Positions 2,628 to 17,336 of a stretch of DNA of 32,000 nt are shown here, one piece after another; within the stretch, counting starts at the first letter, position 1, and each line of letters opens with the position of its first letter. The notes below the pieces were generated by a model. It had not been told where the DNA came from and did not search any database. It saw nothing but the letters and a program-made list of their open reading frames with translations. Source of the stretch: Nautilia sp. PV-1 (GTDB lineage Bacteria > Campylobacterota > Campylobacteria > Campylobacterales > Nautiliaceae); contig NZ_CP026530.1 in assembly GCF_004006315.1 (NCBI RefSeq), forward strand, positions 585,889 through 617,888, in the 5' to 3' direction. The position numbers and the translations under genes are program-made.

Positions 2628-2647
2628 ATTCATAAATGAATGTTCAT
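2628..2647. promoter_or_regulatory. Overlapping palindromes upstream of echA (candidate operator)
   Basis: ATTCAT-AA-ATGAAT (2628-2641) overlaps ATGAA-TG-TTCAT (2636-2647). A TATAAT lies at 2661-2666, so the palindromes sit over the -35 position. Confidence 0.4.
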
Positions 2648-2688
2648 TTTGATATTATTATATAATCAAATTTATTTTGGAGGGTAAT

Positions 2689-4548
2689 ATGGATACATTT
2701 ATTGTTCTAAGTATCGTATTGCCGTGGATTGCCGCTTTGGTGATTTATCTGGCAAAAAACGATTTTGTAACTAATCTGCTTTCATTTGCAATGCTGCCTA
2801 TTTTAGGTTATTTTGCATGGATGATTTATTCAAGTGGCAATTTGCCTTATTACATGGATACACCTAACTGGGTCGGATATCTGATAACGGTGTATGATTT
2901 CGGTTTGCTGGGATACTTTTTTTATCAGGGTATAAAAAATAAAAGTATGCTGGTTTCTTCACTTGCCGTTTTACAGCTTGTTCTTTTAACAATTGTTGTA
3001 TTTATGATTAAAGAGAGCGATACAGCCAACATATATGTTGATAAATTAACGGCGTTTATGTATATGATTGTAGCAATTGTCGGTGTTCCTATTGCGATTT
3101 TCGCAACTAAATACATGGAATATGACGAAAAAGGAAAACATAGCTTTGTAGCTATTTTGATCTGGTTTTTGGGTGTGATGAATTTCGCAGTAAGCGTTAA
3201 TAATATCGAATGGTTTTTTGCGCTGTTTGAGACAACAACACTTGCTTCATACGTACTCATCAGATTCAGAATGGACAGTGAAGCTGTTAATAACGCAGTT
3301 TTGGCTTTATGGATGAATCAGATTGGAGGGGTTGCTATTTTATTAGCTCTTCTGACTTTAATAAAAACAAGCGGTATTTATGATTTTACGGATCTGTTAA
3401 ACGCATCTCCGAAGGTTGTTTCACTTACGGCTTTAGGGTTTTTATCTTTAAGCGCGCTTGTAAAAGGCGCTCAAATGCCTTTTCACAAATGGCTTTTAGG
3501 TGCGATGGTTGCGCCGACACCCGTCAGTGCGATACTGCATTCGGCAACAATGGTAAAAATCGCTCCTTATCTGCTGCTTAGACTTTCACCTATTATTAAA
3601 GGCACTCTTTTAGCAAAACTTTTAATTATTACAACAGGTTTCGTGTTTGTTGCAGCTGCCGTTATAGCATTAACACAGGACAATTTCAAAAAAATTCTTG
3701 CATATTCAACCATTTCTCTGCTTGGACTTATGATGCTTGCCGCTGTTGTAGGTACGCCAATTGCGGTTACCGCAAGTCTTATTCTTATTTTATTCCATGC
3801 GTTTGCGAAAGGTTTTCTGTTCATCGAAGCCGGGGTTTTGGAAAAAGTATTTCACGTTAAATATATAAAAGAAATGAAAAGATTAATAGAAAGAGCTCCT
3901 CTTACTCTTATGTTTATTTTCTTTGGATTTTTAAATATGACGTTCGTTCCTTTCGGAACTTTTATAGGTAAATGGATTATGATTGAAGAGGCAAGTGGTT
4001 TCCTCTCTCACGGCAGTTATGTTCTGTTAATTCTTTATGTGGGTGCGGGAAGCGCATTTTTGAGCGTGCTTTATATGAAAGTATTGGGTATCAGTGTCAG
4101 AAAATCTCATGGAATAGAAAAAGTTAAACTTCTGCCTCTGCCAAAAAGATTTAACTTTGTATCAATCTGGTATTATGTGTGGCTATTGGCTCTGACAGTA
4201 TTTATCGCTCCGTTTATTGCTACGCAAATCGTTCCTGTTGCCACTGAAATAACCGGAAGCGTAGCTAATATTTATTCAGAACATCTGTCTTTGATTATTA
4301 ACAATTCAACATTGTATTTCTGGCAGATTATGGGAGCATTGATTATTTTATTATTAATTCACGCTCTTCCGTTTTTCGTACATTTCAAAAATGTAGATAC
4401 CGCTATGCCGTATAACTGTGGCGAAGCGTTCCCTAGACATATTGAAACATATAATTTCGTATGTATTTCAAAATATGAAAACTATCTGATAGCATTCAGT
4501 ATTGCTCTGTTTATTATGGTATTAGTTCTTGGAGGAGGTTTATTATGA
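2689..4548 (+). CDS. echA: Ech-type (group 4) [NiFe] hydrogenase membrane subunit, NuoL/antiporter-like
   Basis: Polytopic membrane protein of about 620 aa with NuoL/HyfB-like stretches (PFHKWLLGAMVAPTPVSAILHSATMVKIA). The ATG at 2689 is preferred over the TTG at 2677 because GGAGGG (2679-2684) sits just upstream. First gene of a six-gene ech order. Confidence 0.85.
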   Translation: MDTFIVLSIVLPWIAALVIYLAKNDFVTNLLSFAMLPILGYFAWMIYSSGNLPYYMDTPNWVGYLITVYDFGLLGYFFYQGIKNKSMLVSSLAVLQLVLLTIVVFMIKESDTANIYVDKLTAFMYMIVAIVGVPIAIFATKYMEYDEKGKHSFVAILIWFLGVMNFAVSVNNIEWFFALFETTTLASYVLIRFRMDSEAVNNAVLALWMNQIGGVAILLALLTLIKTSGIYDFTDLLNASPKVVSLTALGFLSLSALVKGAQMPFHKWLLGAMVAPTPVSAILHSATMVKIAPYLLLRLSPIIKGTLLAKLLIITTGFVFVAAAVIALTQDNFKKILAYSTISLLGLMMLAAVVGTPIAVTASLILILFHAFAKGFLFIEAGVLEKVFHVKYIKEMKRLIERAPLTLMFIFFGFLNMTFVPFGTFIGKWIMIEEASGFLSHGSYVLLILYVGAGSAFLSVLYMKVLGISVRKSHGIEKVKLLPLPKRFNFVSIWYYVWLLALTVFIAPFIATQIVPVATEITGSVANIYSEHLSLIINNSTLYFWQIMGALIILLLIHALPFFVHFKNVDTAMPYNCGEAFPRHIETYNFVCISKYENYLIAFSIALFIMVLVLGGGLL

Positions 4549-5387
4549 AGTTTGAAACGTTAATGATACTGCTTACGCTTTTTGCGCCTGTTATAGGCGG
4601 TTTTGTGTATGGTGTTGAAAGAATAGTAAAAGCCAGAATGCAAAGCAGGGTGGGACCTCCTGTAATGCAGCCTTTTTATGATTTTTTTAAATTAATGGAC
4701 AAAAGGCCTTTAATGGTGCATTCTCTGCATGCGGTAATGGGTATTATGTATTTTGTGGCGTGCTGGTTTGCACTTTTAGTGCTGTTTTTGGGAAATGACT
4801 TATTGGTTGCCGTTTTTTTCCATGTAATAGCGGTACTGGCTCTTACAATCGGTGCTTTTAGCGTAAGAAGCCCTTACAGTGTAATAGGTGCGATGAGAGA
4901 ACTTATGCATATGATAAGTTATGAGCCTTTAATGGTATTGATGGTGGTGGCTTTTTATCAGGTTGTAGGCAGTTTTAATCTGAAGGATATTTTGACATAT
5001 CCTGGAGTTCCTTTATTTCAGATTCCTGTAGTGTTTGTAGCATTTGTTTTAGCGATTCCTATGATGCTTCACAAATCTCCTTTTGATGTAGCAGAAGCGC
5101 ATCAGGAAATTATCGGAGGTCCGGAAATAGAATACAGCGGACCTTTTTACGAAGCTGTTTACACAGGAAAATGGATTGAATATGTGTATGTATTTTTCTT
5201 TGTGTTTTTATTCGGAGGAAGCCATTACTGGCTGGGAGCGCTGCTGGTGTTTTTAGTGTTTATTTTTGTCAATGCACTTGATAACGCGACTGCAAGGCTT
5301 GATTTCAGAAGAATGGTTAAATTTTCCTGGTTTGTATTAATTCCGATATCAGCGCTTAATATAATCTTTTTGGCACTATGGAGGTAG
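4545..5387 (+). CDS. echB: Ech hydrogenase membrane subunit, NuoH/HycD-like
   Basis: 280 aa and polytopic, with a 4-nt overlap with echA. The motif RVGP and the PFD..EAHQEIIGGP.EYSG stretch are typical of NuoH/HycD. Confidence 0.85.
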   Translation: MKFETLMILLTLFAPVIGGFVYGVERIVKARMQSRVGPPVMQPFYDFFKLMDKRPLMVHSLHAVMGIMYFVACWFALLVLFLGNDLLVAVFFHVIAVLALTIGAFSVRSPYSVIGAMRELMHMISYEPLMVLMVVAFYQVVGSFNLKDILTYPGVPLFQIPVVFVAFVLAIPMMLHKSPFDVAEAHQEIIGGPEIEYSGPFYEAVYTGKWIEYVYVFFFVFLFGGSHYWLGALLVFLVFIFVNALDNATARLDFRRMVKFSWFVLIPISALNIIFLALWR

Positions 5388-5389
5388 TT

Positions 5390-5884
5390 ATGGGTATATT
5401 TAGTAAATTCAGAAAAAAATCCCCTTGGATATTGCATTATAATACAGGAGGGTGCAACGGGTGTGATATTGAAATTCTTGCGGCTCTTGCTCCAAAATTC
5501 GATATCGAAAGATTCGGTATGCTCAACAGAGGAAATCCGAAACAGTCTGATATTTTATTGGTTACGGGCCCTGTTACAAAAAGATGCAGAGACGTTTTAA
5601 GAAGACTTTATATTGAAATGCCCGAGCCAAAAGTGGTCGTTGCAATGGGCGCTTGTGCACACGGAGGAGGTATTTTCAGGGATTTTTATCACGTAGAAAA
5701 CGGCGTTGACAATATAATTCCTGTGGACGTATGGATACCGGGATGTGCGCCGAGAGTCGAAGCTGTTATCGACGGAATGGTTGAAGCGGTTAAAATCTGG
5801 GAGAAAAAAACAAAAGAAAAAGAATATATGAGGGGTCACAGTGTAGAATTATTAGAAAAATTAGGAGCTAGAAATGATGATTAA
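5390..5884 (+). CDS. echC: Ech hydrogenase small subunit, NuoB-like ([4Fe-4S])
   Basis: Cys ligands GGCNGCDIE, GACAHGGG and GCAPR are present. The ATG at 5390 is preferred because GGAGG lies 7 nt upstream and echB stops at 5387. The ORF-track start at 5378 would overlap echB. Confidence 0.9.
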   Translation: MGIFSKFRKKSPWILHYNTGGCNGCDIEILAALAPKFDIERFGMLNRGNPKQSDILLVTGPVTKRCRDVLRRLYIEMPEPKVVVAMGACAHGGGIFRDFYHVENGVDNIIPVDVWIPGCAPRVEAVIDGMVEAVKIWEKKTKEKEYMRGHSVELLEKLGARNDD

Positions 5885-6248
5885 TCCGGAAATAACATTT
5901 ATGGAAGCTACAATAGAAAATGTGGTTGATTTAATAAAAGACTGGTATGACGAAAATCAGTATCATTATGTAACCGTTAACGCCACTGATAACGGAGGAA
6001 ATGTTACGATTGACTGGATATTTTCAAAATATAATGACAAAAACAAATTAACGGTGTTCAGAGCCGAAAACGTACCGTACGATGCTAAAATTCCTTCAAT
6101 AGTCAGTGTTGTTCCTAGCGCATGGATTGCAGAGTGGGAGCTTGCGGATCTCTTTGGATTAGATGTTGAAAATGCGGCAAAAGGGGTGTTTATCGAACCT
6201 GACGCACCTCAGGCGCCTTTAAGAAAAGGGGAAGCAAATGGGAAATAA
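5874..6248 (+). CDS. echD: Ech hydrogenase subunit D, NuoC-like
   Basis: 124-aa hydrophilic protein between the small and large subunits, overlapping both neighbours. Position and size match EchD. Confidence 0.7.
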   Translation: MMINPEITFMEATIENVVDLIKDWYDENQYHYVTVNATDNGGNVTIDWIFSKYNDKNKLTVFRAENVPYDAKIPSIVSVVPSAWIAEWELADLFGLDVENAAKGVFIEPDAPQAPLRKGEANGK

Positions 6249-11770: not shown

Positions 11771-11846
11771 GACCCGTTAGCTCAGTCGGTAGAGCATCTG
11801 CCTTTTAAGCAGAGGGCCGTTGGTTCGAATCCAACACGGGTCACCA
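11771..11846 (+). tRNA. tRNA-Lys (anticodon UUU)
   Basis: The cloverleaf folds by hand: acceptor GACCCGT/ACGGGTC, anticodon stem TCTGC/GCAGA, loop CTTTTAA, T-loop TTCGAAT, encoded CCA. Confidence 0.95.
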
Positions 11847-11854
11847 CGCTAAAT

Positions 11855-11929
<75 letters not shown>

Positions 11930-11964
11930 CTTCACAAAGTCCTAATCCATTAATAAAATTTGTT

Positions 11965-12040
11965 GGTCGCTTAGCTCAGTTGGGAGAGCACCAGCCTTAC
12001 AAGCTGGGGGTCGCAGGTTCGAGCCCTGCAGCGACCACCA
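11965..12040 (+). tRNA. tRNA-Val (anticodon UAC)
   Basis: Acceptor GGTCGCT/AGCGACC, anticodon stem CCAGC/GCTGG, loop CTTACAA, T-loop TTCGAGC, encoded CCA. Confidence 0.95.
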
Positions 12041-12057
12041 TCTACAATGCCAAGAGT

Positions 12058-12135
<78 letters not shown>

Positions 12136-12210
12136 CACTTCAAAAACTCCGTAATTTCGGTATCTTTTAAAAATCAACGAGGTAAGTGTCAGTCGTTTTT
12201 GGCGGATTTT

Positions 12211-12230
12211 TACTGACAATTTAACTGACA
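12211..12230 (+). repeat. Pair of (T/A)ACTGACA direct repeats, 12-bp register (putative integrase arm-type sites, left arm)
   Basis: TACTGACA at 12211-12218 and AACTGACA at 12223-12230. An inverted ACTGACA copy lies at 12187-12193. Confidence 0.55.
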
Positions 12231-12263
12231 AATTTTATTTGTTTTTAAAAAATTATTTTATTT

Positions 12264-12692
12264 TTATAAATGTATAATTTCTATATTAAAAAATTTTTTT
12301 AAATATTCTGCACTTAATCTTCTGTGACATTTATCAGCTGTCTTTTCACTACATAATAAAACTGCATTTTCAAAATCATTAATATTTATTTTATCTTCTA
12401 TTTTTCTTTCTTTTAATAAGTTTAAAAAAATATTTTCATATTCTTCCCATGTTATTTTTTTATTTTTATAGTTTTTCAATAATTCTTCTGTTGGAAAAAA
12501 AAGTTTGTTATGTTCATATTTAATACCATGTAATTTTAAAAAATAAGGAAAATGTTTTATATTTGTAAAGCCAGCAAGTTGTGACTTATTATTTAATCTT
12601 ATATCTATAACTTTTTGTATATTATTTCTAGTTAGTAAATTAAAAAATTCTTCCGCACTTTTTCCAGAAAATCCAATTGTAAATAATTTCAT
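12264..12692 (-). CDS. DUF488-like protein (short, divergent paralog)
   Basis: 142 aa. N-terminal LFTIGFSGKS..F..LL..N.I..VIDIR and C-terminal LLCSEKTADKCHRR match my recollection of the DUF488 pattern (TIGhs...DvR...C.E.....CHR). ATGA overlap with the upstream gene. Confidence 0.7.
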   Translation of the reverse strand: MKLFTIGFSGKSAEEFFNLLTRNNIQKVIDIRLNNKSQLAGFTNIKHFPYFLKLHGIKYEHNKLFFPTEELLKNYKNKKITWEEYENIFLNLLKERKIEDKININDFENAVLLCSEKTADKCHRRLSAEYLKKFFNIEIIHL

Positions 12693-13303
12693 TCATTATC
12701 CCCTTCTTTAGTAAATATATTGTAAGCTATATCTATATTTCTAAGCTTATATGCTTTTTGTAATCTTTCTTCATCGCTGATTTCAGGATGAAATAAATTT
12801 TTTTCTGGTAAAAATTTTATATATTTTTCCAAAAGTTTTTTTTCAAGGTAGGCTTGGGATAGTATTTTATCAGGATAAATATGATAAATATTAAATTTAT
12901 TTCTTAGGAATCTTGAAATTAAAGAAAATCTGTGGCAATCAAACGCTTCTTTTTCGCTGCACATTAATGCGATTTTATAACCTTTTTTTACCCCGTTTAA
13001 AATTCTATCAATTCCGTCTTGAAATTTTTTAGTTTGCATTACTTTTTCAAAATTTACTTTTCCATCTTCAAAAATTAAATTTTTATCTTCCCATCTTGCA
13101 CCTAAAGAATTGCCCATAAATATATAATAAATTTTGTTTTTCTTTAAATAAAATTGTAAATCTTCTTTATTGAACCAGTAAGCATATTTTGAATAAGGAA
13201 TACTTCTTACATCTACAATTACATCAATATTATTTTTTTGAAGTAATTTTATAAAATCTTCTAATTTATGTGTAGAATGCCCTATCGTGAAAATTTCTTC
13301 CAT
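12689..13303 (-). CDS. DUF488-like protein (long paralog)
   Basis: 204 aa. IFTIGHSTHKLEDFIKLLQKNNIDVIVDVRSIPYSKY and LMCSEKEAFDCHRF fit the DUF488 pattern well. A GGAG RBS lies upstream. Confidence 0.75.
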   Translation of the reverse strand: MEEIFTIGHSTHKLEDFIKLLQKNNIDVIVDVRSIPYSKYAYWFNKEDLQFYLKKNKIYYIFMGNSLGARWEDKNLIFEDGKVNFEKVMQTKKFQDGIDRILNGVKKGYKIALMCSEKEAFDCHRFSLISRFLRNKFNIYHIYPDKILSQAYLEKKLLEKYIKFLPEKNLFHPEISDEERLQKAYKLRNIDIAYNIFTKEGDNE

Positions 13304-13322
13304 TTTAATTAAACTCCTATAT

Positions 13323-13988
13323 CTATAAACCTAGGATATCCCATACCTTCTTTTCAGGAAGTATATCTACAAATACTTTTGCAATAATTTTATAACAGTT
13401 GCCGTTAAATGGTTCTCCTAAACTAACAACGAGATAAACATCTTCTATAACTTGTTCTTTTAAATATTCAAAATCCGGATCAGTTAATGGCAAATCGTAA
13501 GTTATATTATTATATATAAATTTTCCTCTTCTTTGCAAAGATTTATTATTTCCTCTATCTTTCCAATATAAACTGATTTTATTAACCTTAATTAAAAAAA
13601 GAGAATAATTAATTTTAAGGTTTTCATCATACTTTATATAATTTTCTTTTCCCCATAAGCTTTTAGGAGTATACACAAAATTTTCTAATTCCTTTAAGTC
13701 AATTTCATTTATAAATTCAATTTTTTTATCAATAATAACATTTTCTGGTTGACAATTTAAAGGAACTTCTTTTAATATTTTTATTTTTGCCAAAAAAGGA
13801 AGATTATTTCGTATTGGAAATATGCAATTATATCCGAGTATATTATAGTCACTCCAAATAATTTCTTTTCCGTTTTTATCTGCAACTATTCGGTAAAATT
13901 TTTTATTATGTATGTCAATTACTGCTACACAATTTTCTGAATGTTTTACTGATGAAGCTACAAAAATTACTTTTTTTTCCAAAATCAT
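13323..13988 (-). CDS. Hypothetical protein (221 aa), first gene of the island cargo operon
   Basis: AAGGA RBS before the ATG at 13988. No TM segment or signal peptide, and no motif I can assign. It lies 19 nt upstream of the DUF488 pair on the same strand. Confidence 0.6.
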   Translation of the reverse strand: MILEKKVIFVASSVKHSENCVAVIDIHNKKFYRIVADKNGKEIIWSDYNILGYNCIFPIRNNLPFLAKIKILKEVPLNCQPENVIIDKKIEFINEIDLKELENFVYTPKSLWGKENYIKYDENLKINYSLFLIKVNKISLYWKDRGNNKSLQRRGKFIYNNITYDLPLTDPDFEYLKEQVIEDVYLVVSLGEPFNGNCYKIIAKVFVDILPEKKVWDILGL

Positions 13989-14085
13989 TCCTTAATTTTA
14001 AATTATATTATATATTTTACTTTAATACTTTTTTAAAAGCAAGGAATAAATTTTCAACTTTAAGTTTTAGCTTTATAAAAAATCA

Positions 14086-15411
14086 TTAATCTCCAATATT
14101 TTTACTGCTTTTTATACGTTTTTTTGAAGTATGCGTTAATGTTTTGTTTATTTCATTTTTTCCGTTTTTTTCAGCTTTATTTTCTTTATTAAATTCATAT
14201 TCCATTTCCGTATAATCCCTTTCAATTTTAAGTTTGACATTTTCATTTTCTAAATCTTTGATTTTTGTTTTTAAGATTTGATTTTTCTCTTTTTCCTGTT
14301 TCAGTTCTTTTTGAAGCTGTTTTACTCTAAAAACGGCTTCGATGAATTCTTTGCCATAGTCTTTTTTGGTTGATGTTGTGGATTTGATTATCTTTTTAGC
14401 CTTATCGGTTTTAATAACTTTTTCTTTTTTAATCAATCCTGTTTCGGTTGAGTGTTTTTCGATAAGCTCAAGCTGTCTTTTTCTAATTCTCTCTTTGATT
14501 GAATTTTCAAATTCGTTTAGCATATGATTTATGTCTTTAAGGGTTGAGACTTTTAAAAGTTTTTTGATTTGAGATAACGTTTGGTAATCATCTTTGGTAA
14601 ATAGTTTATATTGTTCGTTTGCTTCTTGGAGTTTATTATAGTCTTTCATCTGGTTTCTTAATTTTTGGATTCTTTTTTCAAGTCCTTTTTTGGTAAGTTC
14701 GAGTTTTCTGATTTCGGCGTCTTTAAGTAATAAATCTTTTTTTAGTTTTCTGTTTTTCTCTTCAGTTTGTTTTCTTAAATTTTTTTCTTTTTCAAGCTCT
14801 TTTTTTAATTTTAAAACTTCATCGTTTTTAATTTTCATGGCTCTTTTGTATTCGTAGGTGTCAAGTCTTTTTGGTCTTTTTTTCTTTTCTTGCGTATAGT
14901 TTACGCCTCTAGGCATGTTTAAGAGTTTTGCGACTTCATCCTGAAGGGTAATTAAATCTTTTTTGTCCATTTTTCTTCTGACACTCACACCTTCGTTGTC
15001 TATTCCTATAAAGAGTATATGTGCATGATAGTTGATAATTTTATTTCCGTTTTCATCTATGTGTCCTTCGTCTTTATGGATGGCAAACTGGATTACTTTT
15101 GTGTTATATCTTTTCTCAATAAATCTGACTATTTTTTCCAAATCTTCTTTTGTGTGTTTTTCGTTAAGGTTGATTACGGCACTGAAAAGGGTAATCGTTT
15201 TTTTATGAAGTTTCTTACCTGTTCTTCTTTGATAAAGTTCCGTTCTTTTTTTAAGTTCATTGAAATATAATTCCATTGCTTCGTTTGCTTTAAGACTGCA
15301 GTAATTATCATCTTTACTGAATATTGAATTGTTTGTATCCTTTTCCCTGCTGTTGTGATAGAATTCACCGATATTCGCTTTTTCAATATGGATTGAGGAT
15401 TTTCTAATCAT
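14086..15411 (-). CDS. Relaxase / mobilization nuclease (MOBV/Mob-Pre-like) with a long K/E-rich coiled-coil C-terminus
   Basis: N-terminal HNSR (HxxR) and IHKDEGH...NYHAHI (HxDE...HxH) resemble MOBV relaxase motifs I and III. AAGGAG RBS. An oriT-like IR lies immediately upstream. Confidence 0.7.
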   Translation of the reverse strand: MIRKSSIHIEKANIGEFYHNSREKDTNNSIFSKDDNYCSLKANEAMELYFNELKKRTELYQRRTGKKLHKKTITLFSAVINLNEKHTKEDLEKIVRFIEKRYNTKVIQFAIHKDEGHIDENGNKIINYHAHILFIGIDNEGVSVRRKMDKKDLITLQDEVAKLLNMPRGVNYTQEKKKRPKRLDTYEYKRAMKIKNDEVLKLKKELEKEKNLRKQTEEKNRKLKKDLLLKDAEIRKLELTKKGLEKRIQKLRNQMKDYNKLQEANEQYKLFTKDDYQTLSQIKKLLKVSTLKDINHMLNEFENSIKERIRKRQLELIEKHSTETGLIKKEKVIKTDKAKKIIKSTTSTKKDYGKEFIEAVFRVKQLQKELKQEKEKNQILKTKIKDLENENVKLKIERDYTEMEYEFNKENKAEKNGKNEINKTLTHTSKKRIKSSKNIGD

Positions 15412-15935: not shown

Positions 15936-16151
15936 ATGAAGCCTTTTTGTTACTCTACATCTAAAATGGCAGACTATCTCGGTGTAAGTAAAGACTTTCT
16001 TCTTAAAAACAAGAATAAACTCTTCAAAAAAGGAATCCACTATTACGAACCGTATGGAATAAAGAAAACCTTATGGAACGTAGCACAGATGGAAAAATGG
16101 ATAACGGGCAGGGAGGAAAATCCTTTTAAAGAGATTTTAAATGAGCTATAA
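15936..16151 (+). CDS. xis: Excisionase-like / helix-turn-helix DNA-binding protein
   Basis: 71 aa. MADYLGVSKDFLLKN...W...MEKWI resembles the excisionase/AlpA-type HTH. It lies immediately upstream of int. Confidence 0.6.
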   Translation: MKPFCYSTSKMADYLGVSKDFLLKNKNKLFKKGIHYYEPYGIKKTLWNVAQMEKWITGREENPFKEILNEL

Positions 16152-16190: not shown

Positions 16191-17264
16191 ATGATAGAAA
16201 ATCCAAAAGTTAGTTTGTTTAATAGAAAAGGGAGATTATACGTTCAGTATTATATAAACGGCAGGTGTGTTCAAAAGTCACTTAAAAGGGATTACACCAA
16301 AGAAAACGTTAAGCTCGCTAAAAAATACGTTATTCCCGAAATCGAGAGGAAAATACTTTTAGGCGAGATTCAGGACAGTAAATTTAAACCCAAAGAATTC
16401 AAACATTACGCCGAGCTGTATCTGAAACAAAAAGAGTCTCTTAAAACATGGAAAGAGTTTAACAATATGGTTTCAAACCAGTTGATACCCGTTTTTGGAA
16501 GTTATACGATAGATAAAATCTCAAAAGGCTTCATCAAGCAATGGGTTGATGAGAGATTAAAAGAAGTCTCACCCATAAGAATGCAAAAATTTCTTGGAAT
16601 TCTTAAAGCCATATTTGAAATAGCAATTGACTATGAGCACATAAAAGAAAATCCTTGTGACAGAATCAAACTTCCAAAACATAATCCGATTAGGCAGATG
16701 TATCCTTTCAGTAAAGAGGAAGTAACTCTTATACTTAACAATGCTGACGGATGGTTTAAAAACTATTTGGCAATCGCTTTTATGACTGGTATGCGTCCGG
16801 GTGAGATTATCGCTTTAACGATTGATGATATCGATTTGGAAAATAAAACCATTAACGTAGATAAAAGAATCAAAAAAGGCGAAATAGGCACACCCAAAAC
16901 AAAACACTCAATAAGAAAAGTTCCTATAATGGATGAGCTTATCCCTTATTTAAAAAATCAAATCGAAACTCAAAAACAAAAAGGTCTTGATTTACTCTTT
17001 ACCACAATCAATAACAGGATGTATTACGACAGCGATAAATTCCATCCCTTCTGGTACAGACTGCTTGATAAGTGCGGTATTGAGAGAAGGGTAATGTATA
17101 ACACCAGACACACGTTTGCCTTAAACGCAATAAGAGCGGGTATCAATATACTTGACGTATCACAGATACTCGGACACAAAGATTCATACGAGACTCTTTC
17201 AACCTATGCGAAATACATAAAAAACGAACATTTAAAGATTAAAAGAGACATAAAACTTTACTGA
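16191..17264 (+). CDS. int: Tyrosine-type site-specific integrase
   Basis: 357 aa with GGAGG RBS. Catalytic-domain landmarks are MTGMRPGEI (Arg), NTRHTFA (R-H), LGHKD and the tyrosine in STYAKY. The N-terminal SAM-like domain precedes them. Confidence 0.9.
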   Translation: MIENPKVSLFNRKGRLYVQYYINGRCVQKSLKRDYTKENVKLAKKYVIPEIERKILLGEIQDSKFKPKEFKHYAELYLKQKESLKTWKEFNNMVSNQLIPVFGSYTIDKISKGFIKQWVDERLKEVSPIRMQKFLGILKAIFEIAIDYEHIKENPCDRIKLPKHNPIRQMYPFSKEEVTLILNNADGWFKNYLAIAFMTGMRPGEIIALTIDDIDLENKTINVDKRIKKGEIGTPKTKHSIRKVPIMDELIPYLKNQIETQKQKGLDLLFTTINNRMYYDSDKFHPFWYRLLDKCGIERRVMYNTRHTFALNAIRAGINILDVSQILGHKDSYETLSTYAKYIKNEHLKIKRDIKLY

Positions 17265-17278
17265 CAGTTCTACTGACA
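17259..17278 (+). repeat. Pair of TACTGACA direct repeats, 12-bp register (putative integrase arm-type sites, right arm)
   Basis: TACTGACA at 17259-17266 (contains the int stop codon) and at 17271-17278, about 41 nt from attR. Confidence 0.55.
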
Positions 17279-17318
17279 ACATAACGAAAAACACCATAAA
17301 TTCAATGTTTGAGAAATT

Positions 17319-17336
17319 TCCCGTCGGCTCCGCCAT
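17319..17336 (+). repeat. attR core (direct repeat copy 2, displaced tRNA-Asp 3' fragment)
   Basis: TCCCGTCGGCTCCGCCAT, identical to 12118-12135. No tRNA body lies upstream of it. Confidence 0.9.

Follow-up and report, generated by a model that had tools for sequence, protein, structure and literature searches.

The 32,000-nt stretch of Nautilia sp. PV-1 DNA studied here (contig NZ_CP026530.1, positions 585,889 to 617,888; hereafter the window) carries on its minus strand three consecutive genes, A, B and C, which form a compact unit that we refer to as the triad (Table 1). The spacer between A and B is 19 nt long and holds an AGGAG sequence, and the stop codon of B overlaps the start codon of C by 4 nt (ATGA). 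A first-pass annotation made from the letters of the window alone had described exactly such a tight same-strand unit, with this gap and this overlap, and its coordinates were confirmed. The encoded proteins are identical to C3L23_03335, C3L23_03330 and C3L23_03325 of Nautilia sp. PV-1, respectively. Since each of them has hundreds to thousands of homologues, they are not chance open reading frames (ORFs). Where gene A begins is ambiguous: the NCBI product is 219 aa long, matching a TTG at position 13982, and homologues align from there. The first ATG at 13988 abuts the GGA of a Shine-Dalgarno-like AAGGA, and the TTG is the likelier start because it is better spaced from this site. A promoter-like site lies upstream of A; the consensus scan that found it returned 32 sites against 22.5 expected and has low specificity in such AT-rich DNA.

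All three proteins match, near full length, the models of one entry in the PADLOC catalogue: A matches PDC-M45A (E value 3.2e-27), B matches PDC-M45B (7.8e-57) and C matches PDC-M45C (2e-52), and the genes are adjacent and co-oriented. Judging by these profile matches, the Nautilia triad is an instance of the PADLOC candidate PDC-M45 and represents the same system. The expectation that the system was undescribed therefore had to be abandoned, since the cassette is already in the catalogue of Payne et al. 2024 (bioRxiv 10.1101/2024.01.29.577857). These authors arrived at 145 PDC candidates by way of genes nested within BREX, DISARM and type I restriction-modification (RM) loci, and their supplement lists PDC-M45 as a three-family cassette. 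The Nautilia copy itself is one more instance of this catalogued candidate, and its component domains already have Pfam models (DuOB and DUF488-N3a).

Protein A, which the first-pass annotation had regarded as an orphan that fitted no family, matches the Pfam family DuOB ("dual OB-containing domain", PF22557) over the full length of the model (residues 5-205 against model positions 1-210), with 124.4 bits against a cutoff of 27 and an E value of 8.7e-36. The tentative alternative offered there, an OB-type nucleic-acid binder, was thereby borne out, and the predicted structure points the same way. The AlphaFold2 model of A (predicted local distance difference test score (pLDDT) 81, predicted template-modelling score (pTM) 0.81) consists of two beta-rich halves, and its best Foldseek matches in the PDB are tandem-OB DNA binders: the HIN-200 domains of MNDA, IFI16 and AIM2, the baculovirus protein LEF-3, and RPA. 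These matches have weak scores (E value about 2e-3, template-modelling (TM) score 0.3-0.44, identity 8-12%); together with the two halves of the model they support the presence of two OB folds. A had no match to the Pfam HIN family and no sequence match in the PDB, giving no sign of homology to HIN domains, and sequence searches of solved structures returned no relative of A, B or C. We regard A as a predicted DNA-binding or sensor subunit. When 1.84 billion cluster representatives were searched with a DuOB profile, 1598 DuOB clusters emerged, and in longer members of the family DuOB is fused to HRDC, RQC and HTH_40, the modules through which RecQ helicases bind DNA. All of the closest relatives of A come from short metagenome contigs, and on two of these, both unclassified (L001 and L002), the triad lies among genes for DnaJ-domain and sigma-70 region 4 proteins. 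When species-representative genomes were scanned with Nautilia-type DuOB patterns, no relative near the window DuOB was found. The possibility that A is a phage structural or housekeeping protein was discarded on the basis of the absence of a PHROG match and a patchy, horizontally spread distribution.

Both B and C exceed the gathering cutoff of Pfam DUF488 (PF04343; 22.2 bits), with 83.4 bits (E value 2.6e-23) and 67.2 bits (E value 2.7e-18), respectively. The family recognition of the first-pass annotation was thus correct, and the DUF488 motifs that it had quoted are present in the two proteins. With the model of the "active DUF488-N3 subclade", DUF488-N3a (PF22751, cutoff 27 bits), C scores 32.1 bits and passes; since B scores only 19.2 bits, it is a DUF488 protein outside the N3a subclade. 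The two paralogues are 31% identical. A recent duplication was rejected on these grounds, with both lineages conserved across phyla. Among 30 homologues of B, the invariant residues are G8-H9-S10, D31-V32-R33-S34, M114-C115-S116-E117 and C123-H124-R125; those of C are D30, R32-L33-N34-N35, C114-S115-E116 and C122-H123-R124-R125. D-x-R, C-S-E and C-H-R are invariant in both families, whereas the G-H-S of B corresponds to G-F/Y-S/A/T in C. In B, residues 1-135 make up the phosphatase-like core; after it come about 70 residues of conserved C-terminal extension, with the acidic tail EGDNE at the very end. A winged helix in this C-terminal part was considered and dismissed, as the matches to HTH_45 (E value 0.027) and Sso10a (0.009) were far under the thresholds.

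The AlphaFold2 model of B (pLDDT 86.7) finds its top PDB matches with Foldseek among MKP5, the plant glucan phosphatase LSF2, a DUF442 phosphatase, Tk-PTP, the baculovirus RNA 5'-phosphatase and Siw14, with E values of 4e-3 and weaker and probabilities of up to 0.97. In the viral library BFVD the top match is entomopoxvirus PTP1 (E value 6e-4, probability 1.0), so that the E values of these phosphatase matches run from 6e-4 to 1e-2. Compared with cysteine (Cys) phosphatases, the model gives TM scores of about 0.3-0.5 and identities of 9-21%, and support for an alpha/beta Rossmannoid fold like that of protein tyrosine and dual-specificity phosphatases is moderate, because the TM scores reach only 0.35-0.46. 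Within the model, the invariant Cys115 ends the strand 111-115 and the invariant His124-Arg125 opens the helix 124-133, so that the predicted arrangement resembles the strand, P-loop and helix layout of Cys phosphatases, but with C-X9-R spacing. In 2023, Burroughs and Aravind reportedly placed DUF488 in the rhodanese-phosphatase superfamily by computational means, and the modelled structure of B appears to agree with this placement. The earlier statement that DUF488 has no assigned function stands insofar as a literature search found no functional study of DuOB, DUF488, PDC-M45 or DUF4326; it needs to be qualified with regard to the computational placement just mentioned.

To what extent the three genes belong together can be judged from other genomes. 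When patterns from an alignment of C-type proteins were run against 185,579 species genomes, 402 hits were obtained, and the best 80, each in a species-representative genome holding a C-type gene, were analysed with our own hidden Markov models (HMMs). The genomes represent Campylobacterota, Desulfobacterota, Actinomycetes, Chloroflexota, Planctomycetota, Bacillota and CPR bacteria, as well as the archaeal groups Methanoregula, Methanosarcinaceae and Thermoplasmatota. A B-type gene lies directly 5' of C in 74 of the 80 genomes, and 69 hold a complete same-strand triad, either in the order B-C-DuOB (50 genomes) or in the order DuOB-B-C found in the window (19 genomes); of the 67 loci whose flanks are adequate, 60 contain the triad. 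B and C overlap by 4 nt at 27 of 56 scorable junctions and by 1 nt at a further 11. The supposition that the triad recurs outside the Nautilia genome is therefore confirmed, as is the description of B and C as divergent, old, translationally coupled paralogues, which are adjacent almost without exception. C is the most conserved component, and its identity of 47-66% to homologues in other phyla, across bacteria and archaea, indicates horizontal transfer. No recurrent fourth gene was seen among 134 nearest neighbours of the surveyed loci, which suggests that three genes are sufficient.

Gene fusions within this sample tie the system to DNA. In locus L059 (1944-4856), a complete RecQ-RQC-HRDC-HTH_40-DuOB protein of 970 aa is encoded directly upstream of B-C, and in L061 and L064 (both 2639-6061) an SNF2 helicase of 1140 aa carries a B-type DUF488 domain at its C-terminus. 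About a quarter of the triads, some 20 loci, have a divergent DuOB of about 230 aa located 3' of B-C (for example L008:6444-7133, L053:6448-7161 and L061:6448-7146), a subfamily that our first DuOB HMM had missed. Four of these divergent proteins were scanned and matched Pfam DuOB with E values of 1e-8 to 4e-12 without any PADLOC match, so PADLOC would probably under-call such triads. Incomplete copies were also encountered. In Sulfurihydrogenibium azorense B-C persists but DuOB is missing, and on a related metagenome contig DuOB and B are reduced to remnants of 51 aa (L003/L004); in four other loci (L031, L038, L058 and L073) DuOB is split into two ORFs. These decayed or split copies reflect either pseudogenisation or errors in metagenome-assembled genomes.

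Related genes are also found on plasmids, of which 133 carry C-like genes and 23 carry DuOB. In Enterobacteriaceae, Acinetobacter and Moraxella, the plasmids carry a variant in which DuOB, a C-like DUF488 and DUF4326 follow each other on one strand (L088, L089, L091, L092 and L093, from plasmids of Citrobacter, Salmonella and Acinetobacter). On plasmids of 4167 bp this variant is the sole visible cargo. DUF488 and DUF4326 are said to have been grouped in one clade by Burroughs and Aravind in 2023; an hhalign comparison of DUF488 (B or C) with DUF4326, using shallow profiles, was not significant (probability about 1% or less). A short acidic tail is conserved at the ends of both B-type DUF488 (…EGDNE) and DUF4326 (…DDGE), and may serve as a docking peptide for the OB protein. 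A megablast search of the plasmid variant against 5,426 complete E. coli genomes gave no match. Among 50,697 phage genomes there was no close homologue of A or C, and a search of the triad against phages at the DNA level also gave no match.

In Nautilia, the triad is the cargo of a small integrative, putatively mobilizable island in tRNA-Asp, and the family as a whole is a self-contained, horizontally spreading three-gene module. The 18-nt sequence TCCCGTCGGCTCCGCCAT is repeated exactly at the two att sites, and these copies, 5201 nt apart, bound the island. Besides the triad and a tyrosine integrase gene, it contains a gene for a 441-aa protein and two short ORFs, one of 62 aa with a coiled coil and one of 71 aa that is weakly helix-turn-helix-like. 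The combination of a tyrosine integrase with direct repeats that duplicate the 3' end of the tRNA is that of a tRNA-integrated element. The first-pass annotation had proposed an island of about 5.2 kb at this tRNA and a low GC content of its cargo, and both proposals withstood analysis: the GC content of the triad is 23.0% compared to 34.0% outside the island, lower than that of every 1725-nt window outside the island (minimum 26.1%). The HTH_17 match of the 71-aa ORF in Pfam is weak and sub-threshold (E value 0.036). The 441-aa protein has zero matches among Pfam, NCBIfam, PHROG and PADLOC models. Its N-terminal part of about 190 aa contains an H-x-D-E ... H-x-H motif (IHKDEGH...YHAHILF) and is homologous to ORFs, mostly annotated as hypothetical, on 159 plasmids, of which 72 are typed as mobilizable; these plasmids are mostly 3-5 kb in size and stem from Campylobacter, Arcobacter, Helicobacter and Bacteroides. 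From the motif and the context of small mobilizable plasmids we infer that the protein is a putative relaxase, and it resembles an unmodelled relaxase or Mob family in Campylobacterota and Bacteroidota.

Several smaller features accompany the island. Imperfect 23-nt direct repeats, TTTACTGACAnTTnnACTGACAA, are located at 12209-12231 and 17257-17279, about 75-125 nt inward of the att repeats, and the right-hand copy overlaps the stop codon of the integrase gene. The shorter sequence TACTGACA has 3 exact copies in the window, all within the regions of these repeats, against 0.38 expected. The 23-nt repeats are probably arm-type binding sites of the integrase. A cluster of tRNA genes, Lys(TTT)-Glu(TTC)-Val(TAC)-Asp(GTC), lies directly upstream of the island at 11771-12134, and only the last of them serves as integration site.

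Table 1. Features of the triad and of the island that carries it (positions are those of the window).
Feature	Position	Strand	Basis
Gene A, DuOB (dual OB-fold) protein, 221 aa, PDC-M45A	13988..13323	-	ORF, Pfam, PADLOC
Gene B, long DUF488, 204 aa, PDC-M45B	13303..12689	-	ORF, Pfam, PADLOC
Gene C, short DUF488 (N3a subclade), 142 aa, PDC-M45C	12692..12264	-	ORF, Pfam, PADLOC
Promoter-like site TTAAAA-18 nt-TATAAT, in the 97-nt gap upstream of A	14007..14036	-	consensus scan, 10/12 matches
tRNA-Asp (GTC), integration target	12058..12134	+	ARAGORN; Rfam tRNA 69.8 bits
attL, 18-nt direct repeat, 3' end of tRNA-Asp	12118..12135	+	exact repeat
attR, second exact 18-nt copy	17319..17336	+	5201 nt from attL
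Relaxase-like protein, 441 aa, long coiled-coil C-terminal part	14086..15411	-	motif and plasmid homologues
Putative excisionase / AlpA-like helix-turn-helix protein, 71 aa, 5' of integrase	15936..16151	+	role suggested by position
Tyrosine integrase, 357 aa	16191..17264	+	Pfam Phage_integrase E 1.5e-22; PHROG 1 integrase E 6.8e-69

We propose that the triad is a DNA-directed conflict system, acting against phages or other foreign DNA, in which DuOB binds DNA and directs the B-C pair to process phosphorylated termini of the foreign molecule. We favor this reading tentatively and give it not quite an even chance. The two OB folds of DuOB would bind DNA, probably at single-stranded regions or ends, and DuOB would then target or activate B and C. 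These co-translated DUF488 paralogues, predicted cysteine-phosphatase-like enzymes of the rhodanese-phosphatase superfamily, would act as a heteromeric enzyme that jointly processes a phosphorylated terminal group on nucleic acid, for instance a phosphate at the 5' or 3' terminus of DNA or an adduct linked via a sugar phosphate. Such processing would keep the invader's DNA from being ligated, replicated or packaged. The conflict or accessory role on mobile elements suggested by the first-pass annotation is plausible. Besides the profile matches, the conserved triad, the helicase fusions and the predicted folds, the setting of the module speaks for the conflict reading: a tRNA island of low GC content, carriage on plasmids, no close homologue of A or C in the phage genomes searched, some defence genes among the neighbours (SoFic, HsdS, Mads, RmrA, Cas1 and AbiEi) and the origin of the PDC candidates in BREX, DISARM and type I RM loci. 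These are observations, whereas the steps of the mechanism itself are inferred. A bolder version of the proposal is a new immune mechanism, whereby a HIN-like tandem-OB sensor of foreign DNA ends or single-stranded DNA is paired with a heteromeric phosphatase-like enzyme that edits the invader's termini by phosphate removal or transfer; this we consider unlikely. We know of no validated defence system with an effector chemistry of this kind, the editing of termini by cysteine-phosphatase-like enzymes.

Several observations weigh against a conflict system. Payne et al. 2024 (bioRxiv 10.1101/2024.01.29.577857) give the PDC systems candidate status only, on the principle of guilt by embedding, and a literature search found no paper on the function of PDC-M45 or DuOB. 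Housekeeping genes make up most of the immediate neighbours of the 80 loci, and this sample therefore shows no defence-island enrichment. DUF488 domains are present in phage proteins (PHROG matches; phages CampHawk and HGTV-1) and the domain is therefore not specific to defence. The invariant residues of DuOB are polar (S13, K15, C20, R33, Q80, E82, N83, Y164, T169, D170 and K200) and could form a specific small-ligand or catalytic pocket rather than a surface for generic DNA binding. With respect to the enzymes, the spacing between Cys and Arg is C-X9-R (C115/R125 in B, C114/R124 in C) as opposed to the canonical C-X5-R. Finally, the fold matches of the A and B models are weak, with E values of 1e-3 to 1e-2, TM scores below 0.5 and identities of 8-21%.

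Some of the same evidence can be read in other ways. The module might serve the mobile element that carries it, either by processing the element's own transferring or integrating DNA, healing or trimming incoming single-stranded ends, or by countering host restriction as an anti-defence. The position of the triad next to a relaxase-like gene on a putatively mobilizable island fits this explanation, as do the mobilizable plasmids of 4.2 kb to 10 kb in which the related DuOB-DUF488-DUF4326 unit is the only visible cargo, the fusions to RecQ-type repair modules and the occurrence of DUF488 domains in phages. However, in most of the 80 chromosomal loci the nearest neighbour is not a mobility gene, the module also exists in archaea and bacteria without a relaxase or integrase as nearest neighbour, and the embedding in BREX, DISARM or RM loci through which PDC-M45 was picked up suits defence better, so that we judge service to the element to be an unlikely explanation. 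A role in DNA repair alone, as an accessory to RecQ-type helicases and with no part in conflict, would account for the fusions of DuOB to RecQ, RQC and HRDC, for the mostly housekeeping neighbourhoods and for a solo C-like gene that adjoins uvrB on an Aeromonas plasmid. Yet a repair module is hard to reconcile with a distribution as patchy as 402 hits in 185,579 species genomes, with the horizontal transfer indicated by the identity of C across phyla and domains, and with carriage on an island and plasmids with atypical GC content, and it appears improbable.

Two further explanations concern the substrate and the partnership of the enzymes. B and C could act on a small molecule derived from a nucleotide or from NAD or ADP-ribose, or on an ADP-ribosylated nucleic-acid adduct, with DuOB recognising the modified ligand. 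The polar invariants of DuOB suggest a defined pocket of the type such a ligand would occupy, and the replacement of B-type DUF488 by DUF4326 in the plasmid variant, counted alongside Iyer et al. 2022, also favors this idea. The gene neighbourhoods do not: the 25 most frequent of 157 Pfam families among the 134 nearest neighbours include no ADP-ribosyltransferase, Macro, NADAR, SLOG or cyclase, and the recurrent fusions are to DNA helicases and not to nucleotide-signalling domains, which makes this explanation quite unlikely. Alternatively, the unit might be an addiction module resembling toxin-antitoxin systems, in which one enzyme damages or modifies nucleic acid and its paralogue reverses the change, thereby stabilising the island or plasmid. 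Small, translationally coupled genes on small plasmids and an island would be in keeping with addiction, two paralogous enzymes could oppose each other, and copies with DuOB or B lost or fragmented are seen in Sulfurihydrogenibium. Against this, the conserved genes are three rather than two, the motif of Cys, His and Arg is shared by both paralogues, and an IncFII plasmid that carries the variant has a separate ccdAB module. Nor was any validated toxin-antitoxin or defence family matched: PADLOC returned only the candidates PDC-M45, PDC-M19A and PDC-M63B, and Pfam returned only DUF488, DuOB and sub-threshold matches, with no type II toxin-antitoxin family among them. Addiction likewise appears improbable, and we assign to it as small a chance as to a pure repair role.

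If the triad is indeed an immune system directed at foreign DNA, it would introduce a new effector chemistry into prokaryotic defence, namely phosphatase-like enzymes that act on nucleic-acid termini and are guided by a double-OB binder. It would also provide the first biochemical function for DUF488, a large family of bacteria, archaea and phages. The module is conserved in bacteria and archaea and its parts are swappable: DuOB and the short N3a-type DUF488 occur in triads of the window type as well as in the plasmid variant, a long DUF488 or a DUF4326 takes the place of the second enzyme, and helicase fusions add further variants. The orthologues on enterobacterial and Acinetobacter plasmids are available for work in E. 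coli. The interest lies in the family as a whole, whose enzymology would be new, and not in the Nautilia copy.

The components resemble several known protein systems. Structurally, the B model comes closest to Cys-dependent dual-specificity and atypical phosphatases, the baculovirus RNA 5'-phosphatase among them; its invariant Cys at the end of a central strand, followed by a loop and an invariant Arg at the start of a helix, is reminiscent of their layout. It differs from them in that its C-X9-R motif includes an extra invariant Cys-His, and its invariant GHS and DVRSxPxS motifs are specific to DUF488. The model of DuOB has the two-OB-fold architecture of HIN-200 proteins (AIM2, IFI16 and MNDA), RPA and LEF-3, its top matches. 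HIN domains sense DNA in innate immunity, and we take the resemblance as a possible functional analogy: DuOB shows no detectable sequence similarity to these proteins, has its own invariant polar residues and is linked to them by weak fold similarity only. The C-terminal region of RecQ (RQC-HRDC) offers a comparison at the level of domain architecture, since in fusion proteins DuOB follows RQC, HRDC and HTH_40 modules or an entire RecQ helicase; such fusions place DuOB among DNA-structure-binding accessory modules, although the DuOB of the window is stand-alone and its island carries no helicase. The plasmid variant shares with the triad a DuOB gene and, next in order, a C-type DUF488 with about 50% identity to C; then comes a second small enzyme, which is DUF4326 in place of the long B-type DUF488. 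PDC-M45 is the closest counterpart of all. The window copy is the cargo of an island and not embedded in BREX, DISARM or RM loci, and yet each of its three proteins matches the corresponding A, B or C model and the genes lie side by side on one strand.

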